DNA of 29,108 bases from Archangiaceae bacterium (GCA_043750125.1 JAYVCD010000284.1:1-29108), one strand, 5' to 3'; numbered from the stretch's first letter, positions 1 to 11,126 are shown. Made by a program: numbers and translations. Notes: generated by a model from the letters alone, not told the origin.

Positions 1-480
1 GGCTGCGCGGGCGTTCTCAATTGCGGTGGCACAGATTTCGGTGATGATTTCGGGCTCCCGCTGCAGATCCCGACCGATGATCTTCGCGGCGATCTTGCAT
101 GCCAGCTCGATGATGTCTTTTTCCGAGTCGGCGAGGATCTGGCCCGCCTGCATCTTGGCGCGGGCAATTTCTTCCGAAGCCTTGGCCATCACGTCGGCCC
201 TTGCGTCTTCGGTTGCCTTGGCGAAAACCTTGTCCTTCTCGCGGTGGGCTTCTGCGACGAGCTCCTCAGCCCGCTTGTGCGCGTCAGCGACGATGTCCTT
301 CGCGGTGGTGCGGGCCTCGTATTCTTCGGCGTTCACGACTCCGGCCCGAGGAGGCGGCCTCAAGATCGGCTTTTCGTACTGGGGCCCGTCGGGGGTCGCC
401 GCATCGCCCCGGATCACCTTGTTCAATCGGGGGCCCTGTCCGGAATTGGGGCCCGCGGGGCGTCGCTCAGAGTCGTCCAT
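1..480 (-). CDS. sctL: FliH/SctL family T3SS stator protein (partial; continues past left edge)
   Basis: Not in the ORF track; translated by hand from ATG at 480: MDDSERRPAG...NKVIRGD...PILRPPPRAGVVNAEEYEARTTAKDIVADAHKRAEELVAEAHREKDKVFAKA...AKMQAGQILADSEKDIIELACKIAAKIIGRDLQREPEIITEICATAIENARAA. A coiled coil followed by the 'IIELAxxIAxKII' segment is typical of FliH/SctL; it lies downstream of sctJ and the FliG-like gene. Confidence 0.85.
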   Translation of the reverse strand, partial: MDDSERRPAGPNSGQGPRLNKVIRGDAATPDGPQYEKPILRPPPRAGVVNAEEYEARTTAKDIVADAHKRAEELVAEAHREKDKVFAKATEDARADVMAKASEEIARAKMQAGQILADSEKDIIELACKIAAKIIGRDLQREPEIITEICATAIENARAA

Positions 481-493
481 GAATTCAAGAAGT

Positions 494-1960
494 TTAGCTC
501 GAACCGCGCCCGGGTCCACGACCCGAGCCATTGGTCAGGCCCGCGCCCCGCACAACCGGGGAGGACGTGCCAGTGGTGGGTGGACTCTTGCGTTTGGGAA
601 TTTCCTGCAGCGCAGGCGAGGTCGCCGCGCGCCCGGGTTGGCCCTTCGAGGGCACGGACCGTCTGAGCTCTTTTCCATCGCGCATGATCTTCCCGCTTCG
701 AATGCCGGGATCGGTTCCCGGCCGCTGCGTCCTGGGCTGCGATGGAACGTGGGCCGGAGCCCGGGGACCTGGGTAGCTGCTGGCAGCCCCCGCCTTCCGC
801 GCCTCGCGCTCGGCCATGAAATCGCGGCGCACTTCCTGCTCTCCTCGTCTGCCCGGCGGGGGCGCGGCGGGAACTGCCGCCACAGAGCGCGAGCGATCGG
901 CAAGCGCAACGCGTTTGTCGGGCGGAGGACTCAACCGTTTGTCGGCTGGGCGAGGGGCGACCAATTGACCGCCCGGCATGACCCCCGAAGGGTGAGGCGG
1001 TCGAAGGGACGGGGGAGGCAGACGCATCGGTCGATCGATGACACCGCGCTGAGCGAGCCTTTCCATCTGTTCCACGATGTCCATTCGGCCGCCGTCACCG
1101 CGGACGGGCTTGTTGCGCTCTTCGCGGGTCCAACGCACGAGCAGCTTTCCGAACTCGCCGGGGTTGCGCTCGATCAACCGTGCGGCCATGTCCGGAGACT
1201 GGGCCAACGCAGCGCGGGCCAGGCGCTGGGCCCCAGCGCTGCGCATCCCCATCGACGGCTCTTTGAGCGCGTGGTGCATCTCGAGCACAGTGCGGGCATC
1301 TTCGTCGGTCAGCTTGCGCGCCTTCCCGGCATCGCTGGCCCGCTGTGCCAGCGAGCGTTGGTCGGGCGGCAGTGCAGCGAGGAAAGCGTCACGGTCGCCG
1401 TCCGGCAGCCCGGCGATTGCCGTGGCCAGCGCACGGGCCCCCATGCGATCTGCGATCGTCAGCAGCTCGCGCGACTGCAAGGTGATCAAGTCTGAGAACT
1501 TGAAGAGGCCCGCTCCTTTCGGAGCCGACTGGCGAATCGCTTCTTCGAGCTTCCAGCGAATGATCGAAAGCACATCGGGCCGAACTTCCCGCTGCAGCTT
1601 CACCGGCTGGCCGCGAACTTCTTTGCGAACGGAGTCAGCCAGTTGCGAGGGAAGAGCGCGCAGCACCACTTCGACCAAAGCCAAACGTTCTTTGCCGAGA
1701 ACCGCAGCGAGCCGAGCAGGGTCGACCGAGGCGAGCTGGCGCCGGCGCGCGGTGACCAGGCGCTTGATTTCCTGGACCAGAAACGGAATTCGCTTGTCGC
1801 GGGGAATCTGGAGCAGCTCGAGGGCCCGATGCTTGAGAAGCTCGGCCTCTTCATCGGGCAGGTGATCGAAAGCCTCGACGCAGTTCGCCCCACCGAATGT
1901 GACCGCGGTCAGCAGCAGCATCGTCTGCCGCTTCGAGAGGGAGGCAAAATACTGTTCCAC
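494..1960 (-). CDS. FliG-like protein in the SctK position of a T3SS cluster, with Pro/Arg-rich C-terminal tail
   Basis: 488 aa, GTG start. PARLAAVLGKERLALVEVVLRALP resembles the FliG middle domain; FKFSDLITLQSRELLTIADRMGARALATAIAG resembles the FliG-C ARM; KPVR...DIVEQMERLAQRGVI resembles the FliG C-terminal end. Lies between sctJ and sctL. Confidence 0.7.
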   Translation of the reverse strand: MEQYFASLSKRQTMLLLTAVTFGGANCVEAFDHLPDEEAELLKHRALELLQIPRDKRIPFLVQEIKRLVTARRRQLASVDPARLAAVLGKERLALVEVVLRALPSQLADSVRKEVRGQPVKLQREVRPDVLSIIRWKLEEAIRQSAPKGAGLFKFSDLITLQSRELLTIADRMGARALATAIAGLPDGDRDAFLAALPPDQRSLAQRASDAGKARKLTDEDARTVLEMHHALKEPSMGMRSAGAQRLARAALAQSPDMAARLIERNPGEFGKLLVRWTREERNKPVRGDGGRMDIVEQMERLAQRGVIDRPMRLPPPSLRPPHPSGVMPGGQLVAPRPADKRLSPPPDKRVALADRSRSVAAVPAAPPPGRRGEQEVRRDFMAEREARKAGAASSYPGPRAPAHVPSQPRTQRPGTDPGIRSGKIMRDGKELRRSVPSKGQPGRAATSPALQEIPKRKSPPTTGTSSPVVRGAGLTNGSGRGPGRGSS

Positions 1961-1980: not shown

Positions 1981-2802
1981 TCAGCCCTCTCGCTCAGCGC
2001 CCGTGCCCGTCTTGGTGCGGGGGCGGGTTCCGGTTCCGGTTCCGTTGCCGCTCGGCTTCCGGATGAAGGCAAAGGCCGTCAGGCCGCCCATGGCCAGCAC
2101 GAGCAGGGCCCCGAGGCCTACCATCGCCTTGAATTGGTCGGCGCTCTGTTTGGGCATTCGCAGACCCATCACAGTCTGGTTCCGGTCGGTCTGTTCGGCT
2201 TCGACCGCACCGGCTTTCTTCATCAAGACGGTGACCGCTTCTTTGCGCAGCTCGGGAACCGCGGTGGCGACGAACTCTTTGACTTCGGCGTCGGAAATCG
2301 GAGCCTTATCGTCGAGCGTGGGCCGATATTTGATGAATACCGAAACCGAAGGCATCGGCTTTTTTTCGGGCTGGGTCAGATCGTTGGTCTCGGGGATCAT
2401 GACGATCACCCGAGCCTCGAGGACCCCAGGAATGCGATTCAGCGAGTTCGAGATTTCGCCCCCGAGCGCTTCGATGAACATCGCGCGCTCTTCGGTCTGG
2501 GTGGGGATCATTCCCTTCATCTTCTTGAAGACGCTCAGCCCGTCGACGTACGGCCGAGGCAAGGCGTAATCGCGCAGCAGCTGGGCGGCATCGGCTACGT
2601 CCTGCTTGCCGACGCTGATGATGTATTTGGGAACGTTGCCGCCCTCTTCCTTCAGCTTCTTGGCTTCGATTCCGTTGCGCTGAAGCAGCACGTAGATGTC
2701 ATTGGCGTCATCTTCCGTGAGGTCGTGCTGAAGCTCGACGCTGCAACCAGAAAACAGCATCCCCAAGAGGACGCCCCACCATCGCATCGGTCGAAATGAC
2801 AT
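1981..2802 (-). CDS. sctJ: Type III secretion inner-membrane ring lipoprotein (YscJ/HrcJ/PrgK family)
   Basis: Lipobox LFSG-C followed by SVELQHDLTEDDANDIYVLL; IPTQTEERA...LGGEISNSLNRIPGVLEARVIV; PSVSVFIKY; C-terminal TM helix then basic residues. Start at ATG 2802 or 2787; the ORF-track start at 2835 is unlikely. Far shorter than FliF. Confidence 0.93.
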   Translation of the reverse strand: MSFRPMRWWGVLLGMLFSGCSVELQHDLTEDDANDIYVLLQRNGIEAKKLKEEGGNVPKYIISVGKQDVADAAQLLRDYALPRPYVDGLSVFKKMKGMIPTQTEERAMFIEALGGEISNSLNRIPGVLEARVIVMIPETNDLTQPEKKPMPSVSVFIKYRPTLDDKAPISDAEVKEFVATAVPELRKEAVTVLMKKAGAVEAEQTDRNQTVMGLRMPKQSADQFKAMVGLGALLVLAMGGLTAFAFIRKPSGNGTGTGTRPRTKTGTGAEREG

Positions 2803-2841
2803 CAGGGGTCGAAGGCTACTACGGGCGCAGCACACGCACCT

Positions 2842-2901: not shown

Positions 2902-3441
2902 TTAGACCTGGGTCTTGAGGGTGTCCTTCAAGCCACTGGTGGCCTTCTCGACGATCTTGCTGGTGAGGTCGAGCTCCTGCGAATACTTGTACATTCCGGC
3001 CTGGAGCGAGAGCAGCTCGGCGTTGGAAAAAGTCTTTCCGCTTGCGGCCCCGTTGATCAACTTGTCGAGCGACGCCTGGCCCTTTTCCATGTTGCCCATC
3101 ATTCCCATCAGGGCGCTGGAAGTCTTGCTCACGTCGGCCTTCTGAGCGACGGGGTCCATCGCCTTGGCAGTCAGCTTGTTGTCGTTGGTGGAATTGCCAA
3201 CCTTGTTGAGGTTCGCCTTTTCCATCTTGTTGACCTGCTCGACCTGCCGGGCGACGTCGACCTTATGGGCGGCCTGAGCGTGGTTGACTCCCTGTGCTTT
3301 CTGGGAAGGGTCAACGCCCTGCGATTTCATCGCTTGGTCGAACTTGCTGGGGGCCTGCTTGGCTACCTGATTGGCGCCCTGATCCTGCACCTTCTGCTGG
3401 GCGATTTGTGCTGCCGAGATTCCTGCCAGTGGTCCCGCCAT
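2902..3441 (-). CDS. SctI-like (YscI/HrpB2-type) inner rod protein
   Basis: ATG 3441 preceded by AAGGAG RBS; 179 aa, Gln/Ala/Lys-rich N-terminus; C-terminus SNAELLSLQAGMYKYSQELDLTSKIVEKATSGLKDTLKTQV fits the YscI/HrpB2 C-terminal helix pattern; immediately upstream of sctJ. Confidence 0.75.
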   Translation of the reverse strand: MAGPLAGISAAQIAQQKVQDQGANQVAKQAPSKFDQAMKSQGVDPSQKAQGVNHAQAAHKVDVARQVEQVNKMEKANLNKVGNSTNDNKLTAKAMDPVAQKADVSKTSSALMGMMGNMEKGQASLDKLINGAASGKTFSNAELLSLQAGMYKYSQELDLTSKIVEKATSGLKDTLKTQV

Positions 3442-4150
3442 TTTTGCTTCTCCTTGATTCATCTTCGGAAGAATCTTCTTCTTCGAGCAGTACCTTCAAC
3501 CTTTCGACTGCCCTTGCGTGAAGCCGTGAGGCCCAACTCTTCGACTGCCCGATTTCTGCGCCGGCTTCTTCGAGCGTCTTCGACTGAAAGTAGTATCCGT
3601 TCAACAGCTTGCGTTCTTTCTCTGGCAGCTTCTCGATCGCCGACCTGACCCGCCCTTTCATCTGTTCCAGTTCCAGCTTTTCGTCTGCGGGTACCGCCTC
3701 TTCGTCGGACAGTTGAAGCCCTTCAGCTCCTTCAAGGCTGGTGGCGAAAACCATCGCCAGGCCGGTCACCGCACTGGAAATCTCTCTGACATCATCGGCG
3801 ACAGTGCTGCCATGGTTGCTTCCCTGGTCTCGGTCGGCCAAGTTGCCCATGTAGGCGTTGGAGCGATCAGCCATTCCAAAGGACCGCGATTCCGGGCCCT
3901 TGAGAATTCCCATCTTCCGCAAACCATCGAAAATCGCGCCCTTGATGCGGTAGTGGGCAAAGGTCAGGAAATTGGCGCCGACCTTGGGATCAAAGCGTTC
4001 TGCCGCCTCGAGCAGGCCCATCTGCCCGTAAGACATCAGCTCATCCATCTCGATTTGAGAGTTGAACTGCTTGCGAACCGTGGCCGCGAGGCTGCGCACG
4101 TACGGGCCGTATTTTTCGAGGATTACTTTTCCTTCTTCCCCGAGAGCCAC
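3311..4150 (-). CDS. FliA/WhiG-family (sigma28-like) RNA polymerase sigma factor
   Basis: GTG 4150, 7 nt after the upstream stop. Region 2: DELMSYGQMGLLEAAERFDPKVGANFLTFAHYRIKGAIFDGLRK. Region 4: AIEKLPEKERKLLNGYYFQSKTLEEAGAEIGQSKSWASRLHARAVERLK. Region 3 is diverged. The low-complexity tail overlaps the next gene by 131 nt. Confidence 0.9.
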   Translation of the reverse strand: MALGEEGKVILEKYGPYVRSLAATVRKQFNSQIEMDELMSYGQMGLLEAAERFDPKVGANFLTFAHYRIKGAIFDGLRKMGILKGPESRSFGMADRSNAYMGNLADRDQGSNHGSTVADDVREISSAVTGLAMVFATSLEGAEGLQLSDEEAVPADEKLELEQMKGRVRSAIEKLPEKERKLLNGYYFQSKTLEEAGAEIGQSKSWASRLHARAVERLKVLLEEEDSSEDESRRSKNGGTTGRNLGSTNRPAEGAGSGRQSGSQAGPQQVRPSDEIAGR

Positions 4151-4157
4151 TTTCCGC

Positions 4158-4535
4158 TCACTCCGCCTTGGACCACAAGCGCTCGAGCGCCTGGCTGATG
4201 CGGGGGTCATTCTGAAGCTGATCTGAAATCTTCTGGGTCAGGGCCTTGGACTGCAGGCGCACCTTCTCTCGGAGGATGTCGGCCACGAGCTTCTTGGTGG
4301 CCTCTTCCTTTGATTTGATCTGGCCCGACTTGAGCTGCCGGGCAATGTCCAACGCCTGCGCGGTGACCGGGTCGGTGGCCTGAACGTTGGAACTGGCCAC
4401 GAGGCCCGAGGGCGCAACCAGCGACTCGGCTTTGTCGACTTTGGCTCCGAACGCTTTTCCGGCCTTGGCAACGCCGCCGGCGCCGCTGCCTCCGCGAACT
4501 GCTCCTGCCCCGCCTTTCTTGCTGCCGACCTTCAT
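4158..4535 (-). CDS. Hypothetical T3SS-cluster protein; possible FlgM-like anti-sigma factor
   Basis: 125 aa; Gly/Lys-rich, probably disordered N-half; helical C-half (ALDIARQLKSGQIKSKEEATKKLVADIL); directly upstream of the sigma gene. The ORF is well supported, the function is inferred. Confidence 0.6.
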   Translation of the reverse strand: MKVGSKKGGAGAVRGGSGAGGVAKAGKAFGAKVDKAESLVAPSGLVASSNVQATDPVTAQALDIARQLKSGQIKSKEEATKKLVADILREKVRLQSKALTQKISDQLQNDPRISQALERLWSKAE

Positions 4536-4555: not shown

Positions 4556-5005
4556 CTACTTGCCTTTGGCTTCCTTCTTCGGAGGCGGCAACGCGCCAGC
4601 CTCTTTCGCTTCGATCAACGCCTGCGCCAGCCGCGCGCCTTCACCGTCGGGCTCTACATCCAGGGCGGCCTTCAATTCCTTCATCGCCTCATTGACCTTC
4701 CCGAGGAAGAGCAGGGCCTCGCCGGCATGAGCGCGGGGGAGGCCGGACTTCGGCGCCAGCCGCTGGGCGGATCGATAAGCCTGAAGGGCTTTGTCGTGTT
4801 TGCCTTGAACGAACTCGAGCGTTCCCAGGGCCAGCTGCGGAACCTCGCTCTTGGGCATCAGCGCAGCGGCACCCTGAAGAAGATCGCGGGCGTCATCGAA
4901 CTTGCCCATGTCCATCCACAAGTAGCCCGCTTCCAGCATCACCATTGCCTGCTGGCGGGTCACTGGAATCAGGCTGCCCGCCACGTCTGTTTTCTGCTCG
5001 GCCAT
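4556..5005 (-). CDS. TPR protein, probable T3SS chaperone (SctG/CdsG- or SycD/LcrH-like)
   Basis: 149 aa, about three TPR repeats (EAGYLWMDMGKFDDARDLLQGA; LALGTLEFVQGKHDKALQAYRSA; AHAGEALLFLGKVNEAMKELKAAL); AAAGGA RBS; no signal peptide. Confidence 0.75.
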   Translation of the reverse strand: MAEQKTDVAGSLIPVTRQQAMVMLEAGYLWMDMGKFDDARDLLQGAAALMPKSEVPQLALGTLEFVQGKHDKALQAYRSAQRLAPKSGLPRAHAGEALLFLGKVNEAMKELKAALDVEPDGEGARLAQALIEAKEAGALPPPKKEAKGK

Positions 5006-5050
5006 GAAATTCCTTTCGCGAGGGAAGCGAGGAGATTCTTGGTCTTATAA

Positions 5051-5082
5051 CACGAAGGGCGGCCCCATCGGCCGCCCACGTG
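5051..5082 (-). terminator. Stem-loop (weak terminator or mRNA-stabilising hairpin) after the filament-like gene
   Basis: GGGCGGCC (5057-5064) and GGCCGCCC (5070-5077), extendable by CACG/CGTG; the minus-strand tail TTCGTGTT is only partly U-rich. Confidence 0.5.
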
Positions 5083-5103
5083 GACTGCAAACCGTCTGAA
5101 ATC

Positions 5104-5688
5104 TTAGCGGATGTTGCCGATCGAGTTCTTCACGGTGTCGTGGCGGGTCTTGAGGACGTTGGAGACCGAGGTGAAGACCTGGTTCTCGCGCTGCATCGCC
5201 ATCTGAACCTGGAGCAGCTTGGAGTTCTCAGAGCTCGCCTGGACGAGGTCGGAGTTCATCTGACCGACCGCGCCGCCGCTGGAGCCGCCGGTGGTTCCCA
5301 GGGCGTTGGGCGAGCCGTTCACGGTCGAGCCGATGCCGGGCATGTTGGTGACCGGGTTGCCGCAGCCTGCGCCGATGGTGGTGTTGACGCCGCCGCTGCC
5401 GCCGCCGATGTTGACCACGCCGGTCGAAGCGTAGGCTGCGCTGGCTGCGCCCCCCCCCGGAGTGCTGTGGCCGCCCAGCTGGCCGACCGACGAGACGGCG
5501 GCGGAAAGGATCGCTCCGCCGGGAACGAGGCCGCCAACGACGGAGGCGCCGTTCTGGAGCATGCCGCCTGCGGTGTCGAGGCCTGCCTTCATCCGATCGC
5601 CGAAGTCGCGCTTGGGGGTCTGGCGCTCGATCGTCATGTTGGTTGAGAGGCGCGCCGGGGTGCTGTCGATGCGGATGGGACCAGTCAT
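5104..5688 (-). CDS. Gly-rich hypothetical protein with needle/filament-like (SctF/Bsp22-type) C-terminal helix
   Basis: 194 aa, strong TAAGGAG RBS, no Sec signal; ends LLQVQMAMQRENQVFTSVSNVLKTRHDTVKNSIGNIR. Confidence 0.6.
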   Translation of the reverse strand: MTGPIRIDSTPARLSTNMTIERQTPKRDFGDRMKAGLDTAGGMLQNGASVVGGLVPGGAILSAAVSSVGQLGGHSTPGGGAASAAYASTGVVNIGGGSGGVNTTIGAGCGNPVTNMPGIGSTVNGSPNALGTTGGSSGGAVGQMNSDLVQASSENSKLLQVQMAMQRENQVFTSVSNVLKTRHDTVKNSIGNIR

Positions 5689-5781
5689 TTTTTTGAACTC
5701 CTTAGAAAAGGTGCTGCGAAAGCTGTGGAACTTCTTGAGGGCTGCTGCGCCGCCGGACTCTTCCGGGGGTGCCCATTCCAG

Positions 5782-5808
5782 TTATCGCGACCTCTATCGG
5801 TTTGTTGC
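5782..5808 (-). promoter_or_regulatory. Candidate sigma28-like promoter GCAAC-N16-CGATAA
   Basis: Minus strand reads GCAAC AAACCGATAGAGGTCG CGATAA; the -10 resembles the FliA consensus GCCGATAA; about 94 nt upstream of ATG 5688. Confidence 0.5.
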
Positions 5809-5854
5809 CTGCCGGGCGGAGGACCCGAAATGGAAACCCATTGTACCGAATCGA

Positions 5855-6151
5855 CTAGCGACCCGATGCGGGCTTCGCTTTCCGCTCGGCTTCAAGCCTT
5901 TCACGCACTTGCAACAGGTGGGACAACAGCTCTTCGGTCTTCTGAATGGCTTTGCCCACCTTCTTCCCTTGATCTGCCCGGGGTCCTTTCAGCGCGCTGA
6001 GTCCCTCTTTCAGCGGGCTGAAGAGCTCGGCAATCTCTTCAGAAGTCGCGCGTTCGATGAAGCCTTCGATCGCGGGGTACAGGGGCTCGTTCTCGGAAGG
6101 GGCGGGAGCAGGCGGGGTCTTGGCGGTTTTTTTGGCGGGCATGGTGGGCAT
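5855..6151 (-). CDS. Small helical hypothetical protein at the head of the T3SS cluster
   Basis: Likely start ATG 6151 or 6142 (MPTMPAKKTAK...); amphipathic helices LYPAIEGFIERAT...IQKTEELLSHLLQVRERLEAERK. Confidence 0.65.
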   Translation of the reverse strand: MPTMPAKKTAKTPPAPAPSENEPLYPAIEGFIERATSEEIAELFSPLKEGLSALKGPRADQGKKVGKAIQKTEELLSHLLQVRERLEAERKAKPASGR

Positions 6152-6254
6152 CAGGGAATCGCTTTTGATCGGGGCCACGCAGACGGCCCCCCGGGGGCGG
6201 CGGACGCTAGAGGAAACGTCCCCCCCCTTCAAGGATCGTAGACGAAAGTCAGGG

Positions 6255-6291: not shown

Positions 6292-6855
6292 GTGGATCCT
6301 CGGCTGCTTATTCTCGGTCTGTTGAAGAAGGCTCCGATGCACGGGTACGAAATTCAACAGGTGATGAAGCGGAACCGCTTTGACCTGTGGGCAGGGATCC
6401 TCAAGGGGTCGATTTACCATTCGCTCAAGCAGCTGGGAGCCGAGGGTCTGCTCAAGGCACGGGCCAGTGACTCAGGGCGAGGTCGGGTCAAAGTGGTTTA
6501 TGAAATGACCGCGCGCGGGCGCGCTGAGCTCAAGCGCTTGCTGCGCGGCGCATGGGTTTCGAAGGCGCGAGGGTTTGCTGCGCCCCTTCATGCGGCAGTG
6601 GCCTTCCTCGATGAGCTGCCTGCGGACGAGGTGCTCGAGTTGCTCGAGGTGCAAAATGCCCAGCTGACAAACCAATTGGCCGACTGGCGCAAGCAGCAGC
6701 GGGCCGGGGACCCGTCGCAGCCGATTCCCGCGCATCAGCAGCTGTTGTTCGACAGTGCCTGCCAGCACCTCGAAACCCAATTGCGCCTGACCCAGAACCT
6801 GAAGCTGCTGCTGGGTGCTTACGGGGCTCGGAAGTCCGGGTTGGGTCAACTTTGA
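6292..6855 (+). CDS. PadR-family transcriptional regulator
   Basis: LLILGLLKKAPMHGYEIQQ...GSIYHSLKQLGAEGLL...VYEMTARGRAEL winged-HTH signature plus C-terminal helical domain. Confidence 0.92.
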   Translation: MDPRLLILGLLKKAPMHGYEIQQVMKRNRFDLWAGILKGSIYHSLKQLGAEGLLKARASDSGRGRVKVVYEMTARGRAELKRLLRGAWVSKARGFAAPLHAAVAFLDELPADEVLELLEVQNAQLTNQLADWRKQQRAGDPSQPIPAHQQLLFDSACQHLETQLRLTQNLKLLLGAYGARKSGLGQL

Positions 6856-6944
6856 CCAACTGGGAAAGGGCTTCCAGAAATTCCGCGTGCGTCGCCCCTC
6901 GTCCTGCATTACCTAGCAGCGGTCCAGAAGGGAGATGACTGAAA

Positions 6945-7694
6945 ATGGCCGCGATCGTTTCGATTCGAGAAGTGGTGAAAGAGTACAACCTGGGCAAGGT
7001 GGTCGTGCCCGCCCTGCGAGGGGTTTCGCTGGATGTCGACAAGGGCGAATTCATCTCGATCGCGGGACCGTCCGGAAGCGGCAAGACGACCCTGCTGAAT
7101 CTGATCGGCTGCGTGGACACCGCAACGCGCGGCACCGTCGAGGTCGCAGGTCGAAACACCAGCAGCTTGAGCGAACGTCAGCTCACTTCTCTTCGGCTGG
7201 ACACGATCGGGTTCATCTTCCAGAGCTTCAATCTGGTCTCGGTCTTGACCGTCTTTCAAAACGTCGAGTTCCCGTTGCTGCTTCAGAACCGGCTGTCGAA
7301 GGGTGAACGGAAAGCGCGGGTGATGCAGTTGCTCGATCAGGTGGGGCTGGCGACGCATGCCAAGCACCGACCCAATGAGTTGTCGGGAGGACAGCGACAG
7401 CGCGTGGCCGTGGCGCGGGCGCTGGTGACCGAGCCGCAGATCGTGCTCGCCGACGAGCCGACCGCGAACCTCGACTCAGTGACGGGCCAGGCGATCATCG
7501 ATCTGATGCGGTCTCTGAACGAGAAGAAGGGCACGACCTTCATCTTCTCGACCCACGACTACAAGGTGATGCAGCACGCGAATGCGGTGGTTCAACTCGA
7601 GGACGGGAAGATCACAGGACGTGAGACTCCAGATCACGCAGCTGCTGCCATGGCCGCCCGTGGGGCGAAGCCGATTCAGGCTGCGGTGTCATGA
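6945..7694 (+). CDS. ABC transporter ATP-binding protein (LolD/MacB-type)
   Basis: Walker A GPSGSGKT, IGFIFQSFNL, signature LSGGQRQRVAVARAL, Walker B/D-loop LADEPTANLD, H-loop STHD. Confidence 0.96.
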   Translation: MAAIVSIREVVKEYNLGKVVVPALRGVSLDVDKGEFISIAGPSGSGKTTLLNLIGCVDTATRGTVEVAGRNTSSLSERQLTSLRLDTIGFIFQSFNLVSVLTVFQNVEFPLLLQNRLSKGERKARVMQLLDQVGLATHAKHRPNELSGGQRQRVAVARALVTEPQIVLADEPTANLDSVTGQAIIDLMRSLNEKKGTTFIFSTHDYKVMQHANAVVQLEDGKITGRETPDHAAAAMAARGAKPIQAAVS

Positions 7695-9820
7695 TTACCC
7701 AGGCGGTGATGCTGGTTCAGATTTCGCTGCGCAACCTGCTCGCGAGCAAGATCAACCTGCTGATCGGCGGGCTGCTGTTGTTGGGTACGTTCTTCTTCGT
7801 CCTGTTTGGAGCACTGCTCGACACCCTTTCCGACTCGATGAGCAAGAGCGTGGTGGGCTCGGTCGCGGGCCACATTCAGATCTACTCCTCGAAATCGAAG
7901 GACGAGTTGTCCTTGTACGGAAGCATGGGCGGAGACCCGGACCTGGGGGCGATCACCGAGTTTCCGAAGATCAAACAAGCGCTCGAAACGCTGCCCAACG
8001 TAAAGACGGTGGTTCCGATGGGAACCTCGGGAGCCCTGATCACCGCGGGCAATACGGTAGACCTGACGCTCGAAAAGCTTCGCGAGCTGTACAAACAGCG
8101 CGATGGAAAATCGACCAACCCCGCCACCGTGAAGCTGACCGGTGCAGAACTCGCGGCCCAGATTGAGAGTCAGAAAAGCCACGTGCGGCAGATTGTGAAG
8201 GTGTTGCAAGGCGACACTGAGAAGGCCGGGGCGATGTTGGACGTGACGAAGACCGACGCCGAAGCCCGTCAGGCGCTCGAACGGGTGTCCGGTGACGACT
8301 TCTGGAAGAACTTCGATGTCGACCCCTACGCCTCGATGGAATTTCTCGAGAACAAGATCGCGCCCCAGGTAACCGATGGGAACCTGATGTTCATTCGGTA
8401 TGTGGGAACGGATCTCAATACGTTTCAGAAGTCGTTTGACCGAATGCAAATCGTCGACGGCCAGCCTGTGCCCGAGGGTCACCGGGGCTTCTTGATCGCC
8501 AAGTTCTTCTACGAAGAATTCATGAAGCTCAAAAACGCTCGACGGTTGGACAAGATCAAGGAAGGGCTTGCGACCGGCAGCAAGACGATTGCCGCTGACC
8601 CCGACCTGCAGCGGTACGTGAAAGAGAATTCCCAGCAGACCCGCGAGCTGGTGCTGCAGATGGACGCGATCAAGACGCGCGCGGCGGCAGAAAAGCTGCA
8701 GGCGTTCCTGGGTGACAAAGACAGTGACCTGACCACCCTGCTCTCTCGCTTCTTTACGATGACGGACGAAAACTTCGCGGTGCGCTACGCGTTTTTCTAC
8801 GCCGAGCTTGCTCCCCTGCTCGAGCTGTACCGGGTTCGCGTGGGAGACACGCTGACGATCAAAGCCTTCACCAAAGCGGGCTACGTGAAGTCGGTGAACG
8901 TCAAGGTTTACGGAACTTTCAGCTTCACCGGAATCGAGAAGTCACCCCTGGCCGGGCAGATCAGCTTGATGGATTTGATGAGCTTCCGCGATCTCTACGG
9001 CTACCTCACCAGCGACAACACCGACGAGCTGAAGCAGCTGAAGGCGAGCACCGCCGCGAAGGAAATCACCCGAGATGGTGCGGAAGAATCGCTGTTCGGC
9101 GAAGGCAACAACGTGGTTGCCGAGGCCACGGCGGGAGTCATCGACGAGAAGAAAGAACTCTCGGGCGTGGCCAAGACGCTGCGAAGGGAAGATTTGATTC
9201 GCCGGGTCTACAACCAGAGCGAGATCGAAGGAGGCGTGGTGCTGAACGCCGCGGTGATCTTGAAGGACGGCAAGACCATCGACGCGACCATCGCGCAAAT
9301 CAATGCGCTGTCCGAAAGCCAGGGCTTGAACATCAAGGCGATCAGCTGGCAGCAGGCGGCAGGAATTCTGGGGCAGGTGATCAACTTCATCAAAGGCCTG
9401 CTGTTGGGGTTCGTGGCGATCTTGTTCCTGCTGGCGATGATCGTGATCAACAACGCTGTCATGATGGCCACGCTGCAGCGCACCCAGACCTTCGGAACGC
9501 TGCGGGCGATCGGCGCGCAGCGGCCCTTCGTGTTGTTGATGGTCTTGATTGAATCGGTGGTGCTCGGTCTGGTCTTCGGCTCGATCGGAATGGTGCTGGG
9601 TTCGGTAGCGGTGGCGATCGTCGGGAAGGTGGGAATTCCCGCCTTTAACGACTACCTCTATTTCTTTTTCTCGGGCCCGAAGCTGTTGCCTGTGTTGAAC
9701 ATCTGGAACCTCTTGATCGCGATCGTGCTGGTGCTGGTGGCCACCACGGTGTCGACCTTGATTCCCGCTCTCAACGCCACCCGCGTGTCTCCGCTGGCAG
9801 CGATGCAGGCCGACGAGTGA
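7691..9820 (+). CDS. FtsX/LolC-E-type ABC permease with enlarged periplasmic domain
   Basis: N-terminal TM, very large periplasmic region, C-terminal 3 TM with RTQTFGTLRAIGA and 'RVSPLAAM' end; ATGA overlap with the ATPase gene. Confidence 0.9.
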   Translation: MITQAVMLVQISLRNLLASKINLLIGGLLLLGTFFFVLFGALLDTLSDSMSKSVVGSVAGHIQIYSSKSKDELSLYGSMGGDPDLGAITEFPKIKQALETLPNVKTVVPMGTSGALITAGNTVDLTLEKLRELYKQRDGKSTNPATVKLTGAELAAQIESQKSHVRQIVKVLQGDTEKAGAMLDVTKTDAEARQALERVSGDDFWKNFDVDPYASMEFLENKIAPQVTDGNLMFIRYVGTDLNTFQKSFDRMQIVDGQPVPEGHRGFLIAKFFYEEFMKLKNARRLDKIKEGLATGSKTIAADPDLQRYVKENSQQTRELVLQMDAIKTRAAAEKLQAFLGDKDSDLTTLLSRFFTMTDENFAVRYAFFYAELAPLLELYRVRVGDTLTIKAFTKAGYVKSVNVKVYGTFSFTGIEKSPLAGQISLMDLMSFRDLYGYLTSDNTDELKQLKASTAAKEITRDGAEESLFGEGNNVVAEATAGVIDEKKELSGVAKTLRREDLIRRVYNQSEIEGGVVLNAAVILKDGKTIDATIAQINALSESQGLNIKAISWQQAAGILGQVINFIKGLLLGFVAILFLLAMIVINNAVMMATLQRTQTFGTLRAIGAQRPFVLLMVLIESVVLGLVFGSIGMVLGSVAVAIVGKVGIPAFNDYLYFFFSGPKLLPVLNIWNLLIAIVLVLVATTVSTLIPALNATRVSPLAAMQADE

Positions 9821-9824
9821 GCCC

Positions 9825-11126
9825 ATGAGCCAACTGTTCTTGATTGCCTTCCGCAGCCTGCTGCAACACCGCACCCGCTCAGCGGTTCTGGGAGGGGCGA
9901 TCGCGATGGTGACTGCGCTGCTGATTTGTTTGACGGGTGTATACACCGGGATGCGCGACACGCTGCTGGTGTCGGCCACGACGCTGATGAGTGGCCACGT
10001 GAATGTGGGCGGGTTCTACAAAGTGACGGCCGGCCAGTCGGCGCCGGTGGTCACGGGGTACAAGAAGGTGATCGAGCTGGTGAAGAAGGAAGTCCCTGAG
10101 CTCGACTACCTGACTCAGCGGGGTCGGGGGTGGGCCAAGCTCGTGAGCGACACCGGCTCGATGCAGGTGGGCATTGGCGGCATCGACATCACCGGAGAAT
10201 CGGGGTTCGTGAAAGTCGTGGTGGTGAAGTCCGGCAACCTCGACGACCTGAAGAAGACCGATTCGCTGATGCTGTTCGAAGAGCAGGCGAAAAAGCTCGA
10301 GGTGAAGGTAGGAGATCGGCTGACGATCTCGGCGCCTACGTTCAAAGGAACGAACAACACCATCGACGTGACCCTGGTCGCGATTGCCCAGAACGTGGGG
10401 ATGCTCAGCTCGTGGAATGTCTACATGAGCGACACCGGATTGCGGCAGCTGTACGCGCTGAATCAGGACACCACCGGCGCCGTACTGATCTACCTCAAAG
10501 ATTTGAAGGCGGTGCCGACGGTGCAAAAGCGATTGCGTGAGGCCTTCGCCCGGGAAGGTTGGCTGATGATGGAACCGAACGCCAACCCGTTCTGGATGAA
10601 GTTCGACTCGGTGAACCGCGAGAGTTGGACAGGGCAGAAGCTCGACATCACCAACTGGGAAGACGAGACCGCGTTCGTAAAGTGGTTCTTGACGCTGTTC
10701 TCATTTGCGTCGGTGGTCGTCATATTTGTAGCGATCGTGATCATCGCCGTGGGGATGATGAACGTGATGTGGATTTCGATTCGAGAGCGCACCCGAGAGA
10801 TCGGGACTCTGCGGGCGATTGGAATGCAGCGGATGCGGGTGTTGGTGATGTTCGTGACCGAAGGCTTCCTGCTCGGGCTGTTCGGGACGTCGGTGGGTGT
10901 GATTCTGGGGTTGTTGCTCGCAGTCGGTCTCACCAAAGCGGACATCGGGCTCAAAGGCGGGGCGCAGTTGGTGATGATGACCGACCACCTGGTGATTACT
11001 CCGACGTTGTTCTGGGCGGCTTTCGCAGTGATTTTTCTGACCGCGGCGATCACGCTGATCTCTGTGGTGCCCTCTTTCCTGGCGGCCCGGCTCAAGCCGG
11101 TGACCGCGATGTCGCACGTCGGATGA
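9825..11126 (+). CDS. FtsX/LolC-E-type ABC permease
   Basis: IAFRSLLQHRTRS N-terminus, ERTREIGTLRAIGM motif, AARLKPVTAM end; 1+3 TM topology. Confidence 0.93.
   Translation: MSQLFLIAFRSLLQHRTRSAVLGGAIAMVTALLICLTGVYTGMRDTLLVSATTLMSGHVNVGGFYKVTAGQSAPVVTGYKKVIELVKKEVPELDYLTQRGRGWAKLVSDTGSMQVGIGGIDITGESGFVKVVVVKSGNLDDLKKTDSLMLFEEQAKKLEVKVGDRLTISAPTFKGTNNTIDVTLVAIAQNVGMLSSWNVYMSDTGLRQLYALNQDTTGAVLIYLKDLKAVPTVQKRLREAFAREGWLMMEPNANPFWMKFDSVNRESWTGQKLDITNWEDETAFVKWFLTLFSFASVVVIFVAIVIIAVGMMNVMWISIRERTREIGTLRAIGMQRMRVLVMFVTEGFLLGLFGTSVGVILGLLLAVGLTKADIGLKGGAQLVMMTDHLVITPTLFWAAFAVIFLTAAITLISVVPSFLAARLKPVTAMSHVG

Follow-up and report, generated by a model that had tools for sequence, protein, structure and literature searches.

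A putative enlarged needle-family protein in the needle-gene slot of a myxobacterial type III secretion-like operon

Does a secretion system of type III (T3SS) described as needleless nevertheless encode an axial subunit? The question is raised by a 29,108-nucleotide stretch of DNA from an Archangiaceae bacterium (GCA_043750125.1 JAYVCD010000284.1:1-29108), called the window hereafter. The window is the entire contig C284 of a Myxococcaceae-like metagenome-assembled genome (6.17 Mb, 460 contigs, 89% complete). On its minus strand, an operon of T3SS genes contains an open reading frame (ORF) of 194 aa, P0001 (5104..5688, stop included), at the place where the needle gene sctF would be expected. 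The T3SS-like machine of Myxococcus xanthus, termed T3SS* (mxan_2434-2464), is needed for prey lysis and is described, in the parts of the two reports that were accessible, without a secretin, needle or translocon (PMC12075869, PMC10849154). According to the accessible part of a further study, SctF is missing from the Myxo systems although it "should have been found"; a structure made of SctF, in the periplasm or outside the cell, is there ascribed to the ancestor as probable and thought to have been lost in the Myxo lineage (PMC3459982). No report of Myxococcus needle, SctF or inner-rod genes was found in the full texts searched, which comprised neither the original 2022 T3SS* paper nor its supplements. 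The label "needleless" derives from the M. xanthus papers, and the window organism is not M. xanthus. The best reading of the sequence data is that P0001 is an exported, chaperoned and enlarged axial subunit of the needle family. The chances that it is an enlarged SctF-superfamily member belonging to the core of the T3SS-like machine of myxobacteria are considered somewhat better than even.

The position of the gene within the operon is that of a needle gene. P0001 is preceded by P0002, an ORF at the E position (5855..6151, minus strand; 98 aa if translation starts at the ATG at 6151, 125 aa with a TTG start at 6232). It is followed, 98 bases further on, by the gene of a 149-aa cytoplasmic tetratricopeptide repeat (TPR) protein at the G position (P0003, 4556..5005, minus strand). 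The same operon contains SctI-like, SctJ, FliG_C and SctL/FliH-like genes. The window SctJ matches annotated plasmid-borne sctJ genes (tblastn), and through these matches the annotated records of Yersinia enterocolitica pYVe227, with the order yscC-D-E-F-G-H(yopR)-I-J-K-L, and of an Aeromonas plasmid, with ascC-L, were reached. P0002, P0001, the TPR gene, P0004, a sigma factor gene, SctI, SctJ, the K-position gene and SctL are, apart from the sigma factor gene, colinear with yscE-F-G-H-I-J-K-L and ascE-L, and P0001 is encoded beside sctI and sctJ in a structural operon. An earlier note on this DNA, made from the sequence alone, had proposed a needle or filament subunit with flanking chaperones; its description of a TPR protein after the 194-aa ORF and a ~98-aa protein before it is accurate, all three ORFs being on the minus strand, and the E and G genes that it placed around sctF in Yersinia are seen in the annotated pYVe227.

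This arrangement is conserved. Relatives were scanned with one genome per species, which gave 284 relatives, and the best 80 of these 284 loci were analyzed; Corallococcus species are among the named records of these 80, M. xanthus is not. Wherever they are present, the neighbors have the same order and strand across the 80 loci, and many of the gaps are cuts at contig ends. The TPR gene directly follows the P0001 homologue at 64 of the 80 loci (55-87% identity), and the E-position gene lies just upstream at 61. A sigma factor is found nearby at 62 loci, P0004 at 61, the SctI-like gene at 59, SctJ at 50 and the FliG-like gene at 47. The TPR gene is missing at 16 loci, of which one is cut off by a contig end and the other 15 lie in off-cluster contexts. 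The genome itself has a second T3SS cluster with a P0001 paralogue, P0127 (34% identity), located directly upstream of SctI-like and SctJ genes. This paralogue is preceded by a patatin-like phospholipase gene and has no TPR gene; the order of its cluster resembles prgI-J-K in an annotated Salmonella record (prgH-I-J-K).

P0001 can be divided in three parts. Residues 1-72 (5473..5688) form a polar, disordered N-terminus followed by a conserved block, at the end of which lies a hydrophobic Gly/Ala segment (residues 50-68) that the earlier note does not mention. Residues 73-136 (5281..5472) are a variable linker rich in Gly, Ser and Thr that is predicted to be disordered, and residues 137-194 (5107..5280) constitute a needle-type C-terminal helix module. 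The N-terminus is not of the Sec type (maximal 9-residue Kyte-Doolittle mean 0.2 for windows starting in the first 25 residues), and Gly makes up 21 of the 68 residues from 73 to 140. The absence of a Sec signal and the Gly-rich middle had both been noticed earlier, and the C-terminal string quoted at that time is the exact C-terminus of P0001. A word-indexed search gave 382 homologues at E<=0.01, every named one being a "hypothetical protein" from Myxococcota, and the 120 listed homologues have no precomputed Pfam domain. In alignments of 33 and of 119 sequences, a conserved N-terminal block (~70 aa) and a conserved C-terminal block (~55 aa) flank the variable linker. The C-terminal module has invariant S, N, K, D, T, I and N columns and always ends two residues past the invariant Asn, so that the family has a conserved polar C-terminal helix which ends the protein. 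AlphaFold2 on P0001 (119-row alignment) gave one confident helix, 139-193, with a predicted local distance difference test score (pLDDT) of 75-86 and a predicted template modeling score (pTM) of 0.22, a low-confidence helix at 28-51, and pLDDT below 50 over residues 43-135. For a 157-aa orthologue (57 rows), the helix spans residues 101-156 (pLDDT up to 89, pTM 0.24). One long helix and little else is what one would expect of a subunit that takes on its fold when it assembles. Neither PHROGs nor PADLOC matched P0001, its sisters or five off-cluster members, apart from two stray weak matches.

As a whole, P0001 matches no Pfam family at E<=10 (24,736 models), and no NCBIfam SctF match was obtained. 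With its last 81 residues, the Pfam needle model (PF09392) becomes the sole family at E<=10 (E=0.023, profile positions 13-71 of 71). When the last 58 residues of 39 proteins of the family were compared with Pfam, this model came up most often, in 11 of 39 (best E=0.002), and the runner-up in 4 of 39. Over both scans of its C-terminal part, P0001 itself matches the needle model with E=0.023-0.029. In a six-frame scan of the own genome with the needle model, three of the five best matches fall within T3SS clusters. The same scan of 201 Myxococcota genomes gave 69 genomes with a match at E<=0.05, four of them above the cut-off. Ten top matches were fetched, from two Myxococcaceae genera and with frames of ~192-204 aa. 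All ten are P0001 orthologues (42-46% identity) with a TPR orthologue adjacent (71-74% identity), and the P0001 orthologue is the best needle-model match genome-wide in all ten Myxococcaceae genomes checked.

A link to canonical needles is provided by another Myxococcota family (f16), to which three of the four genomes above the cut-off belong. Its full-length orthologues, 144-149 aa long, share both terminal blocks with P0001, joined here by a short linker, and the FliA-like sigma gene follows them too. They match the hidden Markov model (HMM) of the P0001 family with E=1.6e-10 to 8.2e-6 (Z=65,263), and the hhalign comparison of f16 with the P0001 family gives P=2.4e-8 over 142 columns. The f16 orthologues in turn align with the canonical SctF profile at P=8.2e-5, the alignment reaching the last residue. 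On the needle model they score 25.0-28.1 bits per protein and 29.2-30.2 bits in the six-frame scan, where they were counted above the cut-off. In an ungapped alignment anchored at the end, S62, N63, K66, D70, I76, N78 and R80 of PrgI (translated from L093) coincide with columns that are invariant, or nearly so, in the family, the counterpart of R80 being a near-invariant final R. Language-model look-alikes, which serve as leads only, have needle clusters as their only annotated neighbors (scores 0.83-0.89). Based on these comparisons, the C-terminal helix of P0001 is very probably homologous to that of needle subunits. That P0001 is an enlarged needle-superfamily protein in the needle slot is, in our own judgment, a homology that deserves high confidence.

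The direct comparisons with SctF weigh against this reading. The last 81 residues of P0001 reach 15.3 bits, compared to a cut-off of 29.4, which also agrees with the earlier expectation that standard HMMs could miss such a protein. PDB sequence searches with P0001 and with the family profile gave no match. When the C-terminus of the family was aligned by hhalign with an SctF profile built from 21 sequences (Ysc family and PrgI), P was 0.10-0.12, in a comparison of low power, as canonical SctI against SctF reaches P=0.0054 and myxobacterial against canonical SctI P=0.011. With an SctF HMM of our own, P0001 is outside the top 25 of 65,263 genome ORFs, and another protein, P0126, is first. Needle subunits are hairpins of ~70-90 residues with a PxxP-type turn; P0001 has 2.4 times this size, lacks the PxxP turn in the aligned region and is modeled as a single helix, not a hairpin. 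As a whole, P0001 fails the curated test of the family as well as its size and shape criteria. It should be filed as a protein that works like, or is related to, SctF, and not as a certified SctF. The earlier interpretation is partly supported: the F slot and the bridging homology speak for a needle-family identity, direct SctF membership, the hairpin and the size do not. The profile comparisons are divided in the same way, not significant directly against SctF, significant via f16, and without a match to the Pfam EspA family.

The spread of the C-terminal module outside T3SS clusters is a second point against a needle. When 1.84 billion representatives were searched with a profile of the last 58 residues, 2,982 proteins matched at E<=1e-3, of which 1,378 reached E<=1e-10. 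The module is located at the very end of the protein in all 150 top representatives (lengths 64-386 aa). Only 10 of these 150 have the P0001-type N-terminal block, and 43 look Sec-exported by a strict heuristic. Many off-cluster module proteins start with Sec-type signal peptides. Fifteen off-cluster loci share no neighbor gene, and a Pfam scan of 59 neighboring ORFs at ten off-cluster loci gave no T3SS family. Seven of ten genomes with off-cluster copies, all of uncertain completeness, have no FHIPEP (SctV/FlhA) gene, so the helix is not needle-specific; the two off-cluster copies with a P0001-type N-terminus fall among the three FHIPEP-bearing genomes. None of 13 off-cluster C-termini matches the needle model. 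The N-terminus seems to set the export route, and the helix seems to act without needing a T3SS. This spread lowers the claim that P0001 is a needle, and it is compatible with a self-assembling helix.

The module could then be a general oligomerization or partner-binding helix unrelated to needles, its needle matches resulting from convergence of polar amphipathic helices and the P0001 gene being in the operon for regulatory reasons. The presence of the module on unrelated N-termini in at least 2,982 cluster representatives, the seven genomes without FHIPEP, the 13 unmatched C-termini and the non-significant direct comparison with the SctF profile all agree with such a helix. Convergence would, on the other hand, have to account for the fact that one family out of 24,736 Pfam models recurs, that the f16 orthologues bridge to canonical SctF (P=8.2e-5), that the P0001 orthologue is the best needle match genome-wide in ten of ten genomes, and that the gene occupies the F slot. 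Even the language-model look-alikes of an off-cluster member name needle clusters only (0.83-0.84; leads only). An unrelated helix is considered quite improbable.

A number of off-cluster loci are described here for themselves. Module proteins are found among CHAT-protease and TPR genes at L072:32-9549 and L074:717-9976, the latter also with Kelch-repeat genes. Proteins with a Sec signal, a coiled-coil middle and the module are encoded at L077:5725-6234, L084:5530-6171, L087:5566-6159, L088:3513-4067, L082:2078-2521 and other loci. Their modules, which come from Acidobacteriota, Bacteroidota, Alpha- and Betaproteobacteria, share 80-92% identity. The genomes of these Sec-signal examples have no FHIPEP gene (the genome of L082 being outside the scan) and no conserved neighbor, and the proteins match no Pfam, NCBIfam, PHROGs or PADLOC family. 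The idea that the module belongs to polymorphic toxins was rejected, as no common neighbor exists at the 15 off-cluster loci and CHAT/TPR genes are found in two only.

The third complication is a second needle-like gene beside sctV, which, like the spread of the module outside T3SS, the earlier note had not taken into account. In the own genome, contig C132 has the order sctR-T-U, a 159-aa gene, a TPR gene, P0126, two TPR genes and sctV. P0126 (212 aa; L007:8404-9042, minus strand) thus has sctU on one side, sctV on the other and three TPR genes as flanking neighbors. At its C-terminus, the needle model matches with E=0.013 and the flagellar rod model Flg_bbr_C with E=0.0013 (3.8e-4 for the C-terminal 58 residues). 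P0126 is the best match of both needle HMMs genome-wide, and its family counts 19 proteins in a word search. This slot is occupied in a sister genus by two 233-aa proteins in tandem, which exceed the Pfam cut-off (30.4 bits per protein, 33 in six frames). Similarity between P0126 and this Pfam-positive protein is weak and confined to the N-terminus (E=0.002, one comparison), and the two are therefore termed slot-mates rather than proven orthologues.

In other genera, the slot upstream of sctV, between TPR genes, holds proteins of 69-73 aa with an AP(P/E)E-type turn. Their genes occur in one to three tandem copies, which are partly identical (e.g., L119:1539-2651 and L118:1462-1677). Three of seven such small proteins match the needle model, with E=3e-5 (positions 5-70 of 71), 4.9e-5 (16-70 of 71) and 0.011, and the other four have no needle-model match at E<=0.1. 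This small family stays below the Pfam cut-off (best 24.6 bits), and its profile does not align significantly with the SctF profile (hhalign P=0.24), which is unfavorable to a needle-family origin of its relative P0001 as well. The small family is clearly related to the C-terminal 58 residues of P0001 (hhalign P=6e-8 and 1.7e-9). Its HMM ranks P0001, P0127 and P0126 as the top three of 65,263 ORFs (E=3.4e-6, 4.5e-6 and 0.07). A search of 61 Myxococcaceae genomes with one of the small proteins gave a match at E<=0.01 in 54, in frames of varied length; the tally includes one unpublished genome (G201), on which no other result depends. The clusters thus carry at least two needle-like genes and one SctI-like gene, and the main polymer-forming gene among these is indistinguishable by sequence.

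Being nearer to the canonical size or score, the second gene could be the real needle, which counts against P0001 in that role. The needle proper would then be the sctV-adjacent gene, 69-73 aa long in some genera and the 212-aa P0126 here, and P0001 would be an accessory or distal axial part: a filament, tip, cap or adaptor that docks via its needle-type helix. EspA or Bsp22 on EscF-type needles offers an analogy for such an accessory filament. Needle-size genes with the AP(P/E)E-type turn, in one to three tandem copies between TPR genes, speak for this arrangement, and two of the small proteins span nearly the entire needle model (E=3e-5 and 4.9e-5). The sister-genus slot protein exceeds the Pfam cut-off (30.4 bits), P0126 tops both needle HMMs, and the size of P0001 and its build of N-block, linker and C-helix would suit a decorated filament subunit. 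It is P0001, however, and not the small gene, that holds the F slot beside sctI and sctJ, and it is P0001 that both cluster types and almost every locus have retained. The P0126 family is small (19 proteins), four of the seven small proteins are without a needle match at E<=0.1, and Yersinia keeps yscX and yscY, not a needle gene, beside sctV. A needle encoded beside sctV is regarded as a possible but not a favored explanation.

Larger proteins with a needle-like helix at their end (258-434 aa) were also observed in other Myxococcota (L100, L101, L103, L105, L106 and L107). They match the needle model with E=7e-5 to 1.4e-3, and some have hydrophobic stretches rich in Gly and Met. Two of them adjoin TPR genes, and one has a weak EspA match (E=0.041). 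These proteins could be further T3SS substrates that dock via the same helix.

The TPR protein, which the earlier note had called a cytoplasmic 3-TPR protein, indeed matches many TPR models (TPR_2 E=2e-11). Its NCBIfam matches are LcrH_SycD (1.7e-11), SctY (1.8e-6) and CdsG (1.1e-4), all below cut-off; for the class II (LcrH/SycD) chaperones, it scores 44 bits and the cut-off is 104.8. Searches of the PDB gave generic TPR chains only. The protein at the E position is conserved only in its last ~70 residues, a core with a KGP turn, and has no Pfam or NCBIfam match. Compared by hhalign, the E-position protein against YscE/AscE gave P=0.25 and the TPR protein against YscG/AscG P=0.21, with low power, as each target consisted of two sequences. 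The E-position protein is a candidate co-chaperone, and the TPR protein a candidate chaperone of the P0001 C-terminal helix.

When the TPR protein, the E-position core and P0001 residues 125-194 were modeled together as three chains, the interface scores (ipSAE) were 0.41, 0.54 and 0.44 (median 0.44), compared to 0.00 for the best of three controls. Contact agreement between runs was at least 88% and the partner pLDDT at least 59. In the calibration of this score, 116 of 157 solved complexes passed the mark, as did 2 of 215 mismatched pairs. At ipSAE<=0.60, it was passed by only 18 of the 157 solved complexes and by both passing mismatches, and the three-chain setup and custom alignments differ from the calibration conditions. 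Needle-chaperone complexes have already been solved structurally, so the pass may partly reflect memory of similar complexes. The model gives weak support to a complex that the TPR and E-position proteins would form with the last 70 residues of P0001. For the proposed SctE/SctG-type chaperones, the gene positions and this model are favorable, while significant similarity to YscE and YscG is lacking and the best named family of the TPR protein is LcrH/SycD. P0001 is likely a T3SS substrate with a dedicated TPR partner.

Such a substrate need not polymerize. The closeness of the TPR protein to translocator chaperones (LcrH/SycD) rather than to YscG, and a conserved hydrophobic Gly/Ala segment in P0001 (residues 50-68, 19-residue Kyte-Doolittle mean 1.73), which would equally suit a membrane-active substrate, both speak against an axial subunit. 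P0001 could instead be translocator-like or pore-forming, a prey-lysis effector or a secreted regulator, and the helix would serve only for chaperone binding or docking. This is in agreement with the top named family of the TPR protein (E=1.7e-11, below cut-off), with the hydrophobic segment, and with the requirement of T3SS* for prey lysis in the accessible parts of PMC12075869 and PMC10849154. P0127 adjoins a patatin-like phospholipase gene, the FliA-like sigma factor of the operon suggests some secreted regulator, and the module also works in Sec-exported proteins. The gene order in the fetched annotated clusters, though, is that of a needle gene and not of translocators, and P0127 is paired with sctI without a TPR gene. 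No translocator family was found among the Pfam-scanned proteins of the operon, and P0001 itself has no EspA, translocator or effector family at E<=10. Moreover, invariant polar residues are present on most faces of the helix, which would exceed the constraint of chaperone binding alone. A non-polymerizing substrate is considered rather unlikely.

The expression signals speak for P0001 as an axial subunit of the needle family. A Shine-Dalgarno sequence, AAGGAG (5698..5703, minus strand), is located nine bases 5' of the P0001 ATG. Directly after the stop, a GC-rich stem-loop with eight G-C pairs is found (5057..5077, minus strand). Of 45 orthologous spacers between P0001 and the TPR gene, 43 contain a stretch of 40 nt with a folding energy of <= -21.6 kcal/mol, and 41 of the 45 are at least 5 kcal/mol under the mean of 20 shuffles. 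The position of the hairpin is conserved across 43 of the 45 loci, and the stem sequences vary between lineages. The hairpin may be a terminator, an attenuator or an mRNA-stabilizing element. Together, the strong ribosome-binding site and the hairpin would suit a protein that is required in surplus, for instance the subunit of a polymer.

A mechanism can be proposed from these features. In a first step, P0001 would be made in excess over the downstream genes by means of the strong Shine-Dalgarno sequence and the conserved post-stop hairpin; these two signals are observed, and the excess itself and the subsequent steps are inferred. The TPR protein, perhaps with the E-position hairpin protein, would hold the ~55-residue C-terminal helix in the cytoplasm and block self-association. 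The disordered, signal-less N-terminus would route P0001 through the SctRSTUV export gate. Beyond the inner membrane, the C-terminal helix may pack in a needle-like manner atop the SctI-like rod, with the invariant polar residues facing the channel, and the N-terminal hydrophobic block and the Gly-rich linker would decorate the exterior. Polymerization of P0001 into a rod, needle or filament is plausible, and we lean slightly towards it on the sequence evidence. P0001 would probably co-assemble with the second needle-like protein encoded beside sctV. That no secretin is reported for T3SS* weighs against a needle, and a rod, stub or filament within the periplasm is for this reason a more probable product than a free needle.

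A wider proposal, which is rather speculative and considered unlikely as a whole, takes the needle-type C-terminal helix as a free-standing self-assembly module independent of the export route. T3SS* would then not be needleless but have a periplasm-spanning axis of at least three needle- or rod-family proteins (SctI-like, P0001 and the small or extended SctF-like protein adjacent to sctV), which could pass lytic cargo to the Tad/Kil pilus. In phyla without T3SS, the helix would have been grafted onto thousands of Sec-exported or cytoplasmic proteins, forming needle-like fibers or capping the needles of predators.

The remaining genes of the operon, all on the minus strand, complete the resemblance to a structural T3SS operon with some flagellum-like traits. 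P0004 (4158..4535, 125 aa, H position, Gly-rich) overlaps the start of the sigma gene. It has no family or PDB match, and hhalign against YopR/AscH gave P=0.24, with low power for a two-sequence target; one might guess at a secreted FlgM-like anti-sigma factor. The sigma factor itself is FliA (sigma-28)-like (3311..4210, Pfam Sigma70 regions 2 and 4) and matches FliA chains in the PDB with E=1.9e-20. It is followed by a 186-aa SctI-like inner-rod protein (2902..3462; Pfam T3SS_basalb_I E=0.0037, NCBIfam SctI E=0.0051, both under cut-off) and the inner-membrane ring lipoprotein SctJ (1981..2835; Pfam YscJ_FliF E=4.5e-22). A 488-aa protein with a FliG C-terminal domain occupies the SctK position (494..1960; Pfam FliG_C E=4.9e-9), a flagellum-like trait within a non-flagellar T3SS. 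The last gene, an SctL/FliH-like stator (1..531; FliH E=1.1e-4, HrpE E=7.4e-4, below cut-off), is truncated by the contig end.

Ahead of the operon lie a divergent PadR-family regulator gene and, beyond it, a set of ABC-transporter/FtsX permease genes (window 6292-11126). An ABC/FtsX (MacB-like) pair is also present near the second cluster (L006:4763-7101, contig C389), which contains a patatin-like phospholipase, P0127, SctI-like, SctJ, SctQ, SctR and SctT. The phospholipase could be a lytic cargo.

A conserved P0001 in the needle-gene slot, with a needle-related helix, indicates that the "needleless" machine probably builds a needle-like or rod-like structure. If P0001 and its small sister are needle-family subunits, the earliest-branching non-flagellar T3SS would have kept an axial structure without a secretin, which PMC3459982 proposed for the ancestor only, and the model in which Tad-pilus tips replace the needle would need revision. 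The papers cited above, on predation by myxobacteria and on the evolution of T3SSs, describe the Myxococcus T3SS-like system as needleless and take SctF as lost from this basal lineage. This reading is complicated mainly by the second, sctV-adjacent gene and by the occurrence of the module independently of T3SSs, which are also the chief new leads.

The known systems can be compared on this basis. Like flagellar rod and hook proteins (Flg_bbr_C), P0001 has conserved N- and C-terminal blocks around a variable middle, its cluster encodes a FliG_C protein and a FliA-like sigma factor, and P0126 matches Flg_bbr_C. No flagellar family, in contrast, matches P0001, and no flagellar genes are reported in these clusters in the accessible part of PMC3459982. 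With the SctI inner rod, a short helical axial protein whose gene is a neighbor, the family C-terminus shows some similarity (hhalign P=0.0046 against the myxobacterial SctI-like family); both clusters have a separate SctI-like gene, and the Pfam match of P0001 is the needle and not the rod model.

EspA and Bsp22 are T3SS-exported proteins of ~190-205 aa that polymerize via a C-terminal coiled coil atop a short needle. P0001 is near that size, and its clusters hold a second, smaller needle-like gene. Unlike these filament proteins, P0001 is encoded in the needle slot and not in a translocator operon, and it has no match to the EspA family (PF03433) at E<=10. With YscE-YscF-YscG and PscE-F-G, it shares the flanking genes, a small one upstream and a TPR gene downstream (cf. 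pYVe227 and the Aeromonas plasmid), although P0002 and the TPR protein have no significant profile similarity to YscE and YscG.

The closest comparison is with SctF itself (PrgI, MxiH, YscF; PF09392). P0001 is much larger, 194 aa compared to 70-90 aa in needle subunits, and it carries a conserved hydrophobic N-terminal block and a Gly-rich linker and is modeled by AlphaFold2 without the hairpin. Like sctF, its gene is located ahead of sctI and sctJ and between E- and G-position genes, and its orthologues reach or approach the Pfam cut-off, with weak matches that recur. The C-terminus shares the pattern S-N-x-x-K-x-x-[KH]-D-x(5)-I-x-N-x-R with PrgI (L093 translation).

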